The notes under the pieces are model-generated. The model was given only the letters and a program-made list of their open reading frames with translations. It was not told the origin of the DNA and ran no database searches. Positions 4,013-9,868 of a stretch of 64,000 bases of DNA are shown piece by piece. The position numbers were made by a program, and so were the translations under genes. The DNA comes from Mosigvirus mar005p1, in sequence record OZ035759.1, one strand, 5' to 3'. Each line of letters opens with the position of its first letter. The first letter of the stretch is position 1.

Positions 4013-5296
4013 ATGAGTAAAATCCAAAAATTATTGCGTGAATCTACAACGTCTACTAGCAACTCAATTGGTCGCCCAAATCTCGTTGCTTTGACTCGCG
4101 CTACGACTAAATTAATATATTCTGACATTGTAGCAACACAAAGAACTAATCAACCTGTTGCTGCTTTTTATGGTATCAAATATCTTAACCCAGATAACGA
4201 ATTCACATTTAAAACTGGTGCTACTTATGCTGGCGAAGCTGGATATGTAGACCGAGAAAAAATTACTGAGCTCACAGAAGAATCAAAAGTCACACTAAAT
4301 AAAGGTGATTTTTTCAAATATAATAATATCGTCTATAAAGTGTTAGAAGATACACCATTTGCAGATATTCAAGAAAGTGATCTAGAATTAGCTCTTCAGA
4401 TTGCAGTCGTTCATTTAAAGGTACGGTTATTTTCAGATGCAGCGGTAACAAGCAAATTTGAAAGCTCTGGTAGCGAAATTTCTGATGCAAGATTCCAGAT
4501 TAATAAATGGCAAACTTCAGTCAAATCTCGTAAACTTAAAACTGGCCTCACAGTTGAATTAGCGCAAGATTTGGAAGCGAATGGATTTGATGCCCCTAAC
4601 TTCTTAGAAGATTTGCTTGCTACTGAAATGGCTGATGAAATTAATAAAGATATTCTTCAGTCTTTAATTACTGTATCTAAACGTTATAAAGTTACTGGAA
4701 TTACTGACACCGGATTTATTGACTTGAGCTATGCATCCGCTCCAGAAGCAGGTCGTTCATTATATCGAATGGTGTGTGAAATGGTATCACACATTCAAAA
4801 AGAGACAACTTATACTGCAACGTTTTGTGTAGCCTCGGCTCGTGCAGCTGCTATTCTTGCTGCTTCCGGTTGGTTAAAACATAAGCCAGAAGATGACAAG
4901 TATCTTTCACAAAATGCTTATGGATTCTTGGCAAATGGATTACCTCTTTACTGCGATACCAACAGCCCATTAGATTATGTTATTGTGGGTGTTGTAGAAA
5001 ATCTCGGCGAAAAAGAAATTGTAGGGTCCATCTTTTATGCTCCATACACTGAAGGAGTAGATTTAGATGACCCGGAACATGTTGGTGCTTTTAAAGTTGT
5101 AGTTGATCCAGAAAGCTTGCAACCGTCTATTGGATTATTGGTTAGATATGCTTTATCGGCAAATCCTTACACAGTAGCAAAAGATGAAAAAGAAGCGAGA
5201 ATAATTGATGGCGGGGACATGGATAAAATGGCAGGACGTTCAGACTTGTCTGTTTTACTCGGTGTTAAATTGCCTAAAATTATTATAGATGAATAA
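4013..5296 (+). CDS. 24: capsid vertex protein gp24
   Basis: 427 aa (T4 gp24 427 aa); gp23-paralogue-like; position after 23. Confidence 0.9.
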   Translation: MSKIQKLLRESTTSTSNSIGRPNLVALTRATTKLIYSDIVATQRTNQPVAAFYGIKYLNPDNEFTFKTGATYAGEAGYVDREKITELTEESKVTLNKGDFFKYNNIVYKVLEDTPFADIQESDLELALQIAVVHLKVRLFSDAAVTSKFESSGSEISDARFQINKWQTSVKSRKLKTGLTVELAQDLEANGFDAPNFLEDLLATEMADEINKDILQSLITVSKRYKVTGITDTGFIDLSYASAPEAGRSLYRMVCEMVSHIQKETTYTATFCVASARAAAILAASGWLKHKPEDDKYLSQNAYGFLANGLPLYCDTNSPLDYVIVGVVENLGEKEIVGSIFYAPYTEGVDLDDPEHVGAFKVVVDPESLQPSIGLLVRYALSANPYTVAKDEKEARIIDGGDMDKMAGRSDLSVLLGVKLPKIIIDE

Positions 5297-5328: not shown

Positions 5329-6327
5329 TTATGATACTAATTCAATCCATGCAGGACGCAGAACATCTTGCACCATTCGGACTAATTCTTTCTTAACAAG
5401 ATTCGGATTATCAGATGATGTTAATACAATACCTTCACGAGAAGTTTCTTCCAGAATATCTTGAACAGTCAATCCCATCACTTTGCCAAAATCTTTTGGC
5501 GTTACAGTCCCAATCTTAGAAATCACATTATTAACACGATTTAATGTAACATAACAAGCTAGAACATCAAGCAAGTTTTTGTCAATTTCGGTTAATGGAA
5601 CCTGAGTTTTAATAGGCTTATCAGACTTTTTCTTTTCACTGAATTTAGAGTTCTTGCACTTAATAGCTACACGAGTACCGTTTGGCAGCCATTTAGGGAA
5701 ACAAGGCTTCAGAACATAACCTTCTGCCGTATTATCGCCAATAACATTAGCGTCAAATACACAATTATTTGCTTCTACAAGGTCTTCTGACGCAGTAGCA
5801 TTATAAGCGGCTAAGACAGAATCAAGGTCATTTGGAATCATGATAAGAGCATCAAATGTGCCACGTCCAAGCATTGGTGCCATTTTAAAACCGAATTCAT
5901 TACAGAAATCTTGCATTTCGTAATCGGTCAAATACGTATTATCACCACTTTCTGTATTGATAAGGATATCGAACACATAAAAATCTTTTTCACCGTAGTC
6001 AACACCTTTCTGGATTCCACCACCAGCGAATTCACCGAATACTTGATATGATACGGCTCGAGCTGTGTACATGAATTCCTGAACGGCTTTAATAGCTTTA
6101 TCATACTTCTTGAGTACGATTTCATAACCATAAAAATCTTCTGCTGGAAGAATAGGGCCTGTGCGCTTGGCGCATGTGACGTTGTCACGTTCAATTATTA
6201 ACGAGAAGTTAGTCCCATGGATTTTCTCACGTGCTACCCAAACACCAGTAGTCAAACCATTAGTGTAGAGTTTTTCAATAAACTTAGAGTTGTAGTGGTT
6301 TTCAAGACTGCTGTATTTCTTAAACAT
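5329..6327 (-). CDS. rnlB: RNA ligase 2
   Basis: 332 aa (T4 Rnl2 334 aa); N-terminal nucleotidyltransferase lysine motif (EKIHGTNF); position after gene 24. Confidence 0.85.
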
Positions 6328-6901: not shown

Positions 6902-6970
6902 ATTATTTGGTTTGTGCCATTATATACATCAATCTCAAGTTGTGTTTTGTATGCTTTAAAAACGAAGAAA

Positions 6971-6984
6971 GGGGCCGAAGCCCC
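6971..6984 (-). terminator. terminator hairpin downstream of hoc
   Basis: GGGGC-TTCG-GCCCC on the minus strand followed by T-rich tract, directly after hoc stop. Confidence 0.5.
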
Positions 6985-6990
6985 TTACGA

Positions 6991-8409
6991 TTATGGATAT
7001 GTATAGATGATACCAGTTTCCAAAGCAGTTTTATGGATGATGTATCCATTACGTGATTCTTGAACATCAACTTCTGGATAGTCTTTCATCATCTTCTGAA
7101 GAGTGTAACGATGCAGGTAGTATTTACTATCTGGATCGTCAATTTTCCAATCTTTACCTTCTTCAGTCATTTTTTGGATTTCATCCATAACCCACCAACC
7201 GCACCAGATGTAAGCTGAAGTACGATGTGGAAGAGGATGAACATAAGGTAATTCACCTTCTGGTTCCGGAGCAACTTTATCAGTTACCTGAACTTGACCT
7301 TCTGCTGTGATAGTTTTGCTATCATAATCAGTAGCAGTAACGACGGCAGTCACTTCAATAGTTTGACTTCCAATAGATGAGGTATCAACGGTATATACAT
7401 TAGTTGACCCTTCTACAGGAGAAGAATCTTTCTTCCATGAATACGCAATTTGCGCTTCTTCTGGTGCATCAGTGACATTAGCGGTAAATGTGGCCGAAGC
7501 ATCTTGTTGAACATTAATAGAAGGAGGAGTCAATGTAACCTGTGGATTCATTGTCTTCTTATTAACCGTTAATGATACTTCATTCGAAGTAACTTCCTTT
7601 GCATCATAATCTGACGCGGTTACTTGGGCTACACATTTAATTCTTTTTACTCCACTTGTAGTTGGAGTATAGCTAAATGTAGAGTTAGTTTCTCCACCAA
7701 CCTGTGAATCATCTACATACCACTGATACGTAGCAGACGCTCCAACCGGTTGAGAAGCTAAGGCAGCAGTAAATTGAACTGGGGTTCCAATTACTCCAGC
7801 TGAAGGACTATTGGGAGTTACTGCCAACGTAGTTGTCTGCGTCTTTTTATTAACAGTCAGTGACACTTCATTAGAAGTAACGCTTAGTGCGTCATAATCT
7901 GCTGCGGTTACTTGAGCCACACACTTAATTCTTTTTACCCCGCTTTCGGCAGGAGTGTAATTGAATGTAGCGTTAGTTGCTTCGCCAACAGGAGAACCGT
8001 CAACGTACCATTGATAAGTAGCGTTTGCGCCTGATGGCTGCGAAGCTAAAGCGGCAGTAAATTCAATAGCTGTTCCGATTACTCCAACGCCAGGGCTATT
8101 AGGAGTTACAGCTAAGGTAGTCGTTTGTGTCTTGTTTTGAACTGTGATAGTTGTAGAAGCTTCTGCTGTTTCAGCTTCAGCTTCTGGAACTGTATTTGTT
8201 GCAACTACTTTAATAGTCTTTTGACCTGCAGGTCCTTTTAGTACATAACTAAAAGTTGCTTCAGCTCCATCTTGCGGAACATCATCTACAGTCCAAGCAT
8301 ATGTAATAGTTCCACCTCCAGTTTCACCACTGGGAGTAGCAGTAAACTGCTTAGTCTCATCTATAACTCCAGTAGGGGTTTTAGGAGTTATATCAACTGT
8401 AAAAGCCAT
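6991..8409 (-). CDS. hoc: highly immunogenic outer capsid protein Hoc, with an extra Ig-like domain
   Basis: 472 aa vs 376 aa in T4; N- and C-terminal sequence recognisable as T4 Hoc; contains a tandem internal ~96 aa repeat. Confidence 0.85.
   Translation of the reverse strand: MAFTVDITPKTPTGVIDETKQFTATPSGETGGGTITYAWTVDDVPQDGAEATFSYVLKGPAGQKTIKVVATNTVPEAEAETAEASTTITVQNKTQTTTLAVTPNSPGVGVIGTAIEFTAALASQPSGANATYQWYVDGSPVGEATNATFNYTPAESGVKRIKCVAQVTAADYDALSVTSNEVSLTVNKKTQTTTLAVTPNSPSAGVIGTPVQFTAALASQPVGASATYQWYVDDSQVGGETNSTFSYTPTTSGVKRIKCVAQVTASDYDAKEVTSNEVSLTVNKKTMNPQVTLTPPSINVQQDASATFTANVTDAPEEAQIAYSWKKDSSPVEGSTNVYTVDTSSIGSQTIEVTAVVTATDYDSKTITAEGQVQVTDKVAPEPEGELPYVHPLPHRTSAYIWCGWWVMDEIQKMTEEGKDWKIDDPDSKYYLHRYTLQKMMKDYPEVDVQESRNGYIIHKTALETGIIYTYP
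7558..8133 (-). repeat. tandem duplication of an Ig-like domain inside hoc (two ~288 bp copies)
   Basis: Protein residues 93-188 and 189-284 are near-identical (KTQTTTLAVTPNSP...RIKCVAQVTA.DYDA..VTSNEVSLTVNK); DNA copies diverged. Confidence 0.8.
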
Positions 8410-8418
8410 AAGTTATCC

Positions 8419-9087
8419 TTATTTTAATGTTACGAAAGAAGAATTACGAGTTTCACGAATTAGAACTGATCCATCGCGATTAATATAATAAATTAAGCTA
8501 AATAATGTTTGGTGAGCAGAAGCATGCACAAAACTGGTTGGGCGAGATTTCCAATCTGGAGTTTCGGCTATCCATTGATAAATCCACCAAGGAACAGTAA
8601 CATATCCCGGGCCTTTGCCTAATTTAATGAGTGTAGGACTAAAATTTTCAGGCAGAACAAATTTTACTTCTTTATTTACCTCTGACTCAGGCTCTTTTTC
8701 AGATTCAACAACCTGAGTAATTGCTTCTTCGAATTTATCATGGTCGAATTCTTTTTCTTGTTCGACAACTTCTAATACTTCAACTTGTTCTGTTGGAGAA
8801 TCAAACAACAGAATAGCTTCTTCTTTAACTTCTTCGTTGGTGAAATTAACACCGTCCACATCATCTGCGGCAGTAATTAAATCGGTGATAGATAATCCAT
8901 CAGTTTCAGGTAATGGTTCATCAGCCAGTGCGTTAAGAGCTTCTTCGATATCAATAACAATATTATCGAATGATTTTGTTTTCTTAACACTAATGCCAAA
9001 TTGTTCCGCATATTCAAACAGTTTAGCTTTGGCTTCCTTTTTATCAGAAAGAGCACGTAACTCTTCAATATAGTCTTTATCGATCAT
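8419..9087 (-). CDS. inh: inhibitor of prohead protease (Inh-like)
   Basis: 222 aa acidic protein (T4 Inh 226 aa) in the conserved slot after hoc; assignment by position and composition. Confidence 0.6.
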   Translation of the reverse strand: MIDKDYIEELRALSDKKEAKAKLFEYAEQFGISVKKTKSFDNIVIDIEEALNALADEPLPETDGLSITDLITAADDVDGVNFTNEEVKEEAILLFDSPTEQVEVLEVVEQEKEFDHDKFEEAITQVVESEKEPESEVNKEVKFVLPENFSPTLIKLGKGPGYVTVPWWIYQWIAETPDWKSRPTSFVHASAHQTLFSLIYYINRDGSVLIRETRNSSFVTLK

Positions 9088-9100
9088 GATATTTCCTCAT

Positions 9101-9108
9101 TATAAATA
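9101..9108 (+). promoter_or_regulatory. T4-type late promoter upstream of the seg-like gene and uvsW
   Basis: Exact TATAAATA 17 bp upstream of ATG 9125. Confidence 0.5.
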
Positions 9109-9124
9109 TAACTATATTTATTAC

Positions 9125-9868
9125 ATGGAAAAGAGTATGTATCACTTTGTTTATGAGACCGTAAATTTAATTAATGGTAAAAAGTACATTGGCAAACATT
9201 CTACAGAAAATTTAAATGATTCGTATCTAGGGTCAGGTGTTGCCTTAAATCGCGCTATCAAAAAATACGGAGAAGAATCATTTAAACGTTCAATAATTAA
9301 ACAATTTGAAACTTCCGCTGAAGCTTTAGAATACGAAGCTCAGTTAGTAACAGAGGATTTGGTCAAATCTAATGAGTATTATAATATGCGCCAAGGCGGT
9401 GAAGGTGGAAGGTATAAGTACACCGAAGCTGATAAGACTAAAATGTCTAATAGTGCTAAAGAACGAATAAAGAGGCTTGGTCATAATCTTTTAGGAAAAC
9501 ACAGATCGGAAGAAACAAAAAGAAAACTATCTGAAACAAATAAACGTCGATACTCTGAAGACCCAACATGCCACGGGCGGTATGGTACAGGAAAGCCAAA
9601 GATTGATAAAATTAAAGGTCCTAAAAATCCTACAACTCTAAATAAAATTTGTGTTAACAACGGTAAAGAAAACAGATTTATATCAGCCGAGGACCCGATG
9701 CCTGAAGGATTTGTAAAAGGAATGGTCCAACTTAATAGAAAATCTAGAAAGGGCTGTGAAGTAAAACCTACGACCACCGGCAGAATATGGGTAAATAACG
9801 GGGCTATAAATAAATTAGTAAATCCGTTATCCATCCCAGATGGATATGTTAAAGGCCGTTTAAGGTAA
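9125..9868 (+). CDS. GIY-YIG homing endonuclease (Seg-like) with NUMOD3 DNA-binding repeats
   Basis: N-terminal VYETVNLINGKKYIGK (GIY-YIG); C-terminal KICVNNG...PEGFVKG and RIWVNNG...PDGYVKG (NUMOD3-like); ORF track start 9086 rejected because it would contain the promoter. Confidence 0.75.
   Translation: MEKSMYHFVYETVNLINGKKYIGKHSTENLNDSYLGSGVALNRAIKKYGEESFKRSIIKQFETSAEALEYEAQLVTEDLVKSNEYYNMRQGGEGGRYKYTEADKTKMSNSAKERIKRLGHNLLGKHRSEETKRKLSETNKRRYSEDPTCHGRYGTGKPKIDKIKGPKNPTTLNKICVNNGKENRFISAEDPMPEGFVKGMVQLNRKSRKGCEVKPTTTGRIWVNNGAINKLVNPLSIPDGYVKGRLR

Follow-up and report, generated by a model that had tools for sequence, protein, structure and literature searches.

A tandemly repeated second Ig-like domain in Hoc of Mosigvirus mar005p1, a common copy-number polymorphism of T4-like coliphages

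The hoc locus

The 64,000-nt stretch of Mosigvirus mar005p1 DNA analyzed here (sequence record OZ035759.1; henceforth termed the window) carries gp24, rnlB, 24.2, 24.3, hoc, inh, a segE-like gene and uvsW in the order known from T4 (T4T was compared). Its hoc gene (6991..8409, minus strand) codes for 472 aa before the stop codon; the product consists of four Ig-like domains followed by a capsid-binding domain at the C-terminus. Genes for a gp24-like vertex protein (4013-5296) and for Rnl2 (rnlB, 5329-6327) lie nearby, with the small ORFs 24.2 and 24.3/DUF2774 between Rnl2 and hoc. Directly upstream of hoc, inh (8419..9087, minus strand) encodes the prohead-protease inhibitor (phrog_1051, E 4.4e-91), and its stop codon is separated from the hoc start by 9 nt. 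A consensus scan located a hairpin resembling a terminator, AAGGGGCTTCGGCCCCTT and then a T run, shortly 3' of the hoc stop (6969..6986, minus strand), and the record of phage WFbE185 has a terminator annotated at the matching place after hoc. No T4 late promoter motif TATAAATA was detected within the 160 nt upstream of hoc (window positions 8410-8569, minus strand). To judge from the sequence, hoc is probably co-transcribed with inh.

The gap between inh and uvsW contains an ORF for a SegE-like GIY-YIG homing endonuclease (9086..9868, plus strand; Pfam SegE_GIY-YIG and GIY-YIG), which lies about 0.7 kb from hoc and shares 49% identity with T4 SegE, with a 51-aa insertion. Since it is 100% identical to the corresponding ORF of phage NicPhage from Met14 on, its real start is probably at 9125. 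The gene is absent in WFbE185, the holder of the closest hoc allele. SegE homing is reported to co-convert flanking DNA (PMC2330249), so this ORF may drive allele exchange at hoc.

Profile and sequence searches consistently point to the Hoc of T4-like phages, and by these criteria the protein is Hoc. T4 Hoc chains in the PDB (5VF3, 8T1X and others) align with it end to end at E 1e-220, the HMMER alignment pairing aa 1-106 with T4 residues 1-106 and aa 189-472 with T4 residues 93-376; RB49 Hoc (3SHS) was not among the PDB sequence matches of this query at E <= 0.001. The protein also matches the PHROG families of Hoc (phrog_1149, termed 'Hoc-like head decoration', at E 7.6e-138). Three Pfam models, PKD, Ig_2 and PKD_3, score over their cut-offs, PKD with 43.1 bits where 23.5 are required and with its best stretch at aa 195-254. 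With a pI of 4.53 and a net charge of -23 at pH 7 the protein is acidic, as Hoc proteins are described to be (pI about 4-5; PMC10385173). An earlier note on this DNA had put the length of Hoc at 472 aa compared with 376 aa in T4, and both the ORF list and the comparison with T4 bear this out.

All five domains are encoded on the minus strand. Ig-like domain 1 (aa 1-92; 8134..8409) aligns with T4 Hoc aa 1-106, is predicted by AlphaFold2 (AF2) to form beta strands at a pLDDT of about 81-93, and is 98.6% identical at the nucleotide level to its counterpart in NicPhage and 89% to that in T4. It is followed by two repeat units, namely Ig-like domain 2a (unit 1, aa 93-188; 7846..8133), which we term type 1 after its centre GSPVGEA (seven strands, AF2 pLDDT 82-94), and Ig-like domain 2b (unit 2, aa 189-284; 7558..7845), termed type 2, with the centre DSQVGGE (pLDDT 91-96), which is the counterpart of T4 domain 2 (D2). 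Ig-like domain 3 (D3; aa 285-378; 7276..7557) aligns with T4 D3, with AF2 strands at pLDDT 80-93, and contains a Pfam Ig_3 / I-set stretch at aa 289-373 that scores under the cut-off. The domain at the C-terminus that binds the capsid (aa 379-472; 6994..7275; phrog_21694, E 3.9e-41) is nearly identical to T4 Hoc aa 283-376.

Repeat structure and predicted fold

The two units, for which the coordinates given in the earlier note proved exact, align in register over 96 aa each, and pairwise alignment at both the DNA and the protein level upheld the reported repeat. Of their 96 residues, 78 are identical (81%), as are 215 of their 288 nt (74.7%), and the frame is intact throughout. The 73 nucleotide differences are distributed 13/12/48 over the three codon positions, and the codon differences comprise 39 synonymous and 18 non-synonymous ones. 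The repeat itself thus stands, while its description as 'near-identical' was slightly generous. Tandem Repeats Finder reported a single array with a period of 288, 2.0 copies, 75% matches and no indels, and a second repeat search returned the same pair. At an offset of 288 nt, identity at hoc is 0.747; over the window as a whole it averages 0.281 (sd 0.041), and its highest value outside hoc is 0.389. The hoc repeat thus lies about 11 sd over the window background, which places it far beyond chance.

An AF2 model built on a 35-sequence alignment (mean pLDDT 83.8) contains four beta-sandwich domains, mostly with pLDDT >90. Both repeat units are predicted to adopt a seven-strand Ig-like beta-sandwich, again mostly at pLDDT >90. 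In unit 1 the predicted strands cover residues 99-102, 115-121, 129-136, 148-151, 157-168, 175-178 and 182-187, a pattern that recurs 96 residues on. Foldseek searches of the PDB with this model returned strings of four Ig domains as top matches (Dscam1 Ig1-4, Sidekick Ig1-4 and ICAM-5 D1-D4, E about 1e-12), and the best match in BFVD was a 568-aa Hoc (E 7e-72). The linker and the C-terminal domain are modelled weakly (pLDDT 37-66), and the overall geometry of the fibre is not established by the model. The earlier note had named failure of the unit to fold as an Ig-like domain as an observation that would count against it; the model predicts the opposite for both copies, and nothing was found against reading them as two Ig-like units.

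Divergence and age of the two units

Between unit 1 and unit 2 we obtained a dN of 0.13 and a dS of 1.5 (NG86), corresponding to a dN/dS of about 0.09; exact matches in register reach 14 nt at most. Saturation of synonymous sites together with conservation of the protein indicates that the duplication is old and that both copies are under purifying selection. Comparison across phages gives a matching picture. Unit 1 of the window is 98% identical at the nucleotide level to unit 1 of WFbE185 and 86% to unit 1 of phage RB30, but just 75-78% to unit 2 or T4 D2. Unit 2 is 98% identical to unit 2 of WFbE185, 97% to the single D2 of NicPhage, 91% to unit 2 of RB30 and 92% to T4 D2, whereas unit 1 and unit 2 are 74-76% identical in each phage compared. 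On these identities, each unit is orthologous to its positional counterpart in other phages and not to its own neighbour.

These data also bear on whether the second unit could have been created by an assembler that mis-expanded the repeat. Repeats in hoc do disturb assemblies, as an N run inside the region in the RefSeq record of phage KNP5 and split or frameshifted hoc CDSs in several other records illustrate. The copies in the window, however, differ chiefly at third codon positions within an intact frame, and an orthologous two-unit layout occurs in many independent isolates, including RB30, whose hoc was deposited in 2002 as a single-gene record (AY101183). We therefore regard an assembly artefact as vanishingly improbable. 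The claim in the earlier note that diverged DNA copies argue against recent slippage or an artefact is well founded, since both the dS of about 1.5 and the recurrence of the two-unit structure in independent genomes exclude these explanations.

Copy number among T4-like phages

A megablast search of the window hoc against 50,697 phage records matched 658 records. Among 51 full-length hoc genes taken at even steps down the megablast ranking, 22 have a length of 1419 nt and 29 of about 1131 nt, the long form occurring in RB27, RB30, PST, phiD1 and HP3 and the short form in T4 and T2. The tandemly duplicated Ig-like domain is real, as the earlier note had it, yet the domain is 'extra' only relative to T4, since the long form is found in about 43% of the related phage records. 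At the protein level, we counted lengths in the best 120 protein clusters of a 5.8-billion-protein collection, which yielded 79 clusters with a Hoc of 376 aa, 29 with 472 aa, eight with 568-570 aa and one with 567 aa. Splitting of the proteins at the unit boundary revealed that lengths of 376, 472 and 568 aa correspond to one, two and three occurrences of the 96-aa unit. Comparison with T4 and its relatives, which had been proposed as a check, thus finds the unit once, twice or thrice even among close relatives. The three-copy forms, represented by UGKSEcP1, UGKSEcP2 and relatives with a Hoc of 568-570 aa, share the 96-aa unit and the flanking domains of the window protein and differ from it in having three tandem units.

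A two-copy Hoc of this kind has been annotated before. The hoc gene of RB30 (AY101183.1, protein AAM52483.1) is 91.1% identical to that of the window over the whole gene, and its record annotates five domains as well as a repeat_region with the comment 'intragenic repeat led to appearance of additional immunoglobulin-like domain'. RB30 Hoc resembles the window protein in its length of 472 aa and in its two 96-aa units in matching order; the repeat domains annotated at CDS aa 95-190 and 191-286 are those of the window in a register 2 aa apart. The differences are allelic only (units 1 and 2 are 86% and 91% identical at the nucleotide level), and the backbone of the window is Mosigvirus-like and not that of RB30. 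A search of the available literature retrieved no paper describing the RB30-type repeat; the GenBank record itself is the earlier description that we located. Given this annotation and the presence of the long form in roughly four in ten related genomes, the D2-duplicated Hoc is no discovery but an ordinary, already known copy-number polymorphism common among T4-like coliphages.

The order of unit types is strongly conserved in two-copy proteins: the first unit has the centre GSPV.EA and the second DSQVGGE in 19 of 25 two-copy forms. Single-copy forms, again among the best 120 clusters, are of type 1 in 54 clusters and of type 2 in 11, T4 included, the rest being hybrids. Only three columns are cleanly diagnostic of the two types (unit aa 48, 51 and 52), and the others are shuffled among alleles, so gain and loss are not polarised by these data. 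As single-copy type 1, type 2 and hybrid alleles all exist, the sequences would fit a gain in the lineage of the window as well as a loss in T4 and its relatives.

Variation in Hoc domain number extends beyond D2. Fokine et al. (2023) describe about 650 Hoc homologues as a conserved C-terminal anchor bearing a string of Ig-like domains in variable number (PMC10385173), and numbers of Ig-like domains reported in that article and in PMC11853027 are one (PG7), two (PNJ-9), three (T4 and RB49) and ten (Muldoon). Phage PNJ-9, a T4-like phage described by Fu et al. (2024), has a Hoc without D3 (PMC11853027). In the portions available of both papers, the 472-aa D2-duplicated form is not singled out. 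A scan of IMG/VR for DNA of close relatives returned 21 loci, few of them close, and was the source of a second duplication, found in the Hoc of Klebsiella phage Marfa (MN044033; positions 1201-2616 of locus L012, a 100% match to that record). In this 471-aa protein, too, an Ig-like domain is duplicated in tandem and in frame, but the domain affected is D3 and not D2. The Marfa D3 units (94 aa, 80% identical in aa and 76% in nt) are close in divergence to the D2 pair of the window, and a 377-aa relative of Marfa (L014) has exactly one D3 unit fewer. The Marfa Hoc lineage is only about 50% identical to the window Hoc, and this duplication was an independent event, indicating that tandem duplication of Ig-like domains is a recurrent mode of Hoc evolution.

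Two further observations concern other lineages. Related Klebsiella phages appear variable for the D3 unit, with match spans either in one piece or about 280 nt shorter, as far as match spans alone can indicate. In a 567-aa Hoc, seen in Escherichia phage CCU7 (locus L002, 1501-3204) and as protein P0053, one type-1-like D2 is followed by two much more divergent Ig-like domains and a D3-equivalent that is also divergent; its route to six domains differs from that of 568-aa three-copy forms such as UGKSEcP1.

Mosaicism of hoc and its neighbourhood

The backbone of the window is Mosigvirus-like, Mosigvirus being the classification of both NicPhage and WFbE185. Its closest relatives over the first 20 kb are NicPhage, NBG1, JM17 and p000y at about 98% identity. 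A short hoc was confirmed in NicPhage and p000y, while NBG1 and JM17 each match in two pieces and fall about 295 nt short of the query, which is consistent with the same indel. The closest hoc alleles reside instead in WFbE185, vB_EQ1 and moskry (96.6-97.4% identity), the genomes of which are slightly less similar to the window, and the gene is also 87-97% identical to the hoc of many Tequatrovirus phages. T4 itself has an alike hoc neighbourhood and differs in having one D2 unit (376-aa Hoc; PDB 5VF3, 8T1X, 8T9R and others) instead of the two in the window. A Mosigvirus-like backbone, nearest genomes with a short hoc and an allele shared with Tequatrovirus phages together indicate that the locus is mosaic.

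The hoc genes of the window and NicPhage are distinguished by one clean in-frame indel of 288 nt with its junction in the conserved GTAACTCC at the unit start. Diagnostic positions assign the single D2 of NicPhage to unit 1 over nt 1-24 and to unit 2 over nt 33-288, i.e., the pattern of a deletion product that joins the 5' part of unit 1 to the 3' part of unit 2. In T4, most of D2 is of type 2, but nt 247-261 form a type-1 patch, and this patch near its 3' end rules out the same simple deletion as the origin of the T4 domain; CCU7 D2 is mostly type 1. As read from these sequences, the mosaic pattern of D2 fits repeated in-register recombination combined with exchange of alleles.

Such mosaicism raises the question of whether a duplication ever occurred within one gene. 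In the alternative scenario, the tandem was assembled in a mixed infection, by unequal recombination between a type 1 and a type 2 allele that were each single-copy and had already diverged. Both types do circulate as single-copy alleles in the numbers given above, with T4 itself of type 2; the units and their flanks are heavily mosaic; a Mosigvirus-like backbone here carries a hoc shared with Tequatrovirus phages; and a SegE-like homing endonuclease of a family for which co-conversion of flanking DNA is known (PMC2330249) is encoded close by. However, an identical pattern is predicted if a single old duplication was followed by loss of one unit or the other, and the nearly fixed order of type 1 before type 2 in two-copy forms suggests a single origin. 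We consider assembly from two diverged alleles unlikely, although the data fit either scenario.

Proposed origin and function

The reading that we prefer, with a probability of roughly 88%, is an old duplication of D2 that has been kept under purifying selection, now segregates as a recombining polymorphism of one, two and three copies, and would give rise to a longer fibre with a doubled D2 surface. Both units would have been retained by purifying selection while their synonymous sites became saturated. One-, two- and three-copy states would interconvert by in-register recombination at the conserved unit boundaries, and these states would in turn pass between phages by recombination.

At the capsid, the near identity of the C-terminal domain to that of T4 implies that the window Hoc should bind at the centre of the gp23 hexamer, where this domain would anchor the fibre as it does in T4 (PMC10385173). 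The T4 Hoc fibre is given a length of 180 A, and with one additional Ig domain the fibre of the window phage would project roughly 40-45 A beyond that. The D2 surface would then be displayed twice, including the NEVSLT motif, which occurs once in each unit (aa 180 and aa 276) and includes the conserved S-L-T of the last D2 strand. The duplicated domain is the counterpart of PNJ-9 D2, whose residues S183, L184 and T185 bind MUC2, and NEVSLT is reported as a MUC2-fucose-binding motif in PNJ-9 (PMC11853027). A second copy could hence let the fibre reach further or bind mucin or glycans of the cell surface with greater avidity. The part in adhesion and mucus binding that the earlier note had ascribed to Hoc Ig domains is indeed found in the literature (PMC10385173, PMC11853027), and a longer reach with a doubled mucin-binding surface is plausible for the window protein.

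The polymorphism might, on the other hand, have no adaptive meaning. If the additional domain were a selectively neutral passenger, its number would drift by recombination and tune neither adhesion nor any other property. Hoc is dispensable in the laboratory (PMC9958956), which favours such neutrality, and forms with one, two and three copies coexist, with 98%-identical genomes differing at hoc only by a 288-nt indel. The similar frequencies of long and short forms, even between genomes this close, would be equally compatible with near-neutrality. The low dN/dS, in contrast, reflects strong purifying selection on both copies and implies that each is maintained as a folded domain. In addition, a different Hoc domain was independently duplicated and retained in Klebsiella phages at similar divergence, and published data assign mucin binding to D2 (PMC11853027). 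On balance, we judge a purely neutral domain number somewhat unlikely and favour retention of both units by selection.

A more speculative extension, which we hold to be quite unlikely as it stands, would be that the copy number of Ig domains acts as a recombination-driven, selectable switch for fibre reach or glycan avidity in which just diverged repeats persist. Fresher copies would be deleted by the very active recombination system of the phage, and the neighbouring SegE-type homing endonuclease could help exchange. The repeats that persist would be those whose DNA is about 75% identical and whose exact matches in register stay within about 14 nt. Selective persistence of diverged repeats would explain why the D2 pair of the window and the D3 pair of Marfa are both found at 75-76% nt and 80-81% aa identity.

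As a discovery the long Hoc carries little weight: hundreds of sequenced coliphages have it, and it agrees with the view, already published, of Hoc as a modular fibre in which the number of Ig-like domains varies. Its value lies in a natural allelic series of near-isogenic phages with one, two or three copies of a domain reported to bind MUC2. The window phage and NicPhage, with their clean local 288-nt indel, form a pair that suits direct tests of domain number, for which effects on mucus adherence, aggregation, immunogenicity and the geometry of phage display are testable. The series is relevant to phage therapy as well as to T4 display platforms.

Annotation of hoc repeats in public records

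Several public records of hoc are irregular. In Shigella phage KNP5 (NC_055713, locus at about 1730-2900), a long N run lies in the hoc repeat and a CDS is annotated for the 3' part only; the repeat evidently broke this assembly. In MZ234025, PQ511148, MZ234041 and MZ234018, hoc is either annotated as two or three CDSs or has a span one base off (1418 or 1420 nt), which suggests frameshift errors or pseudogenes in a repeat-containing gene.
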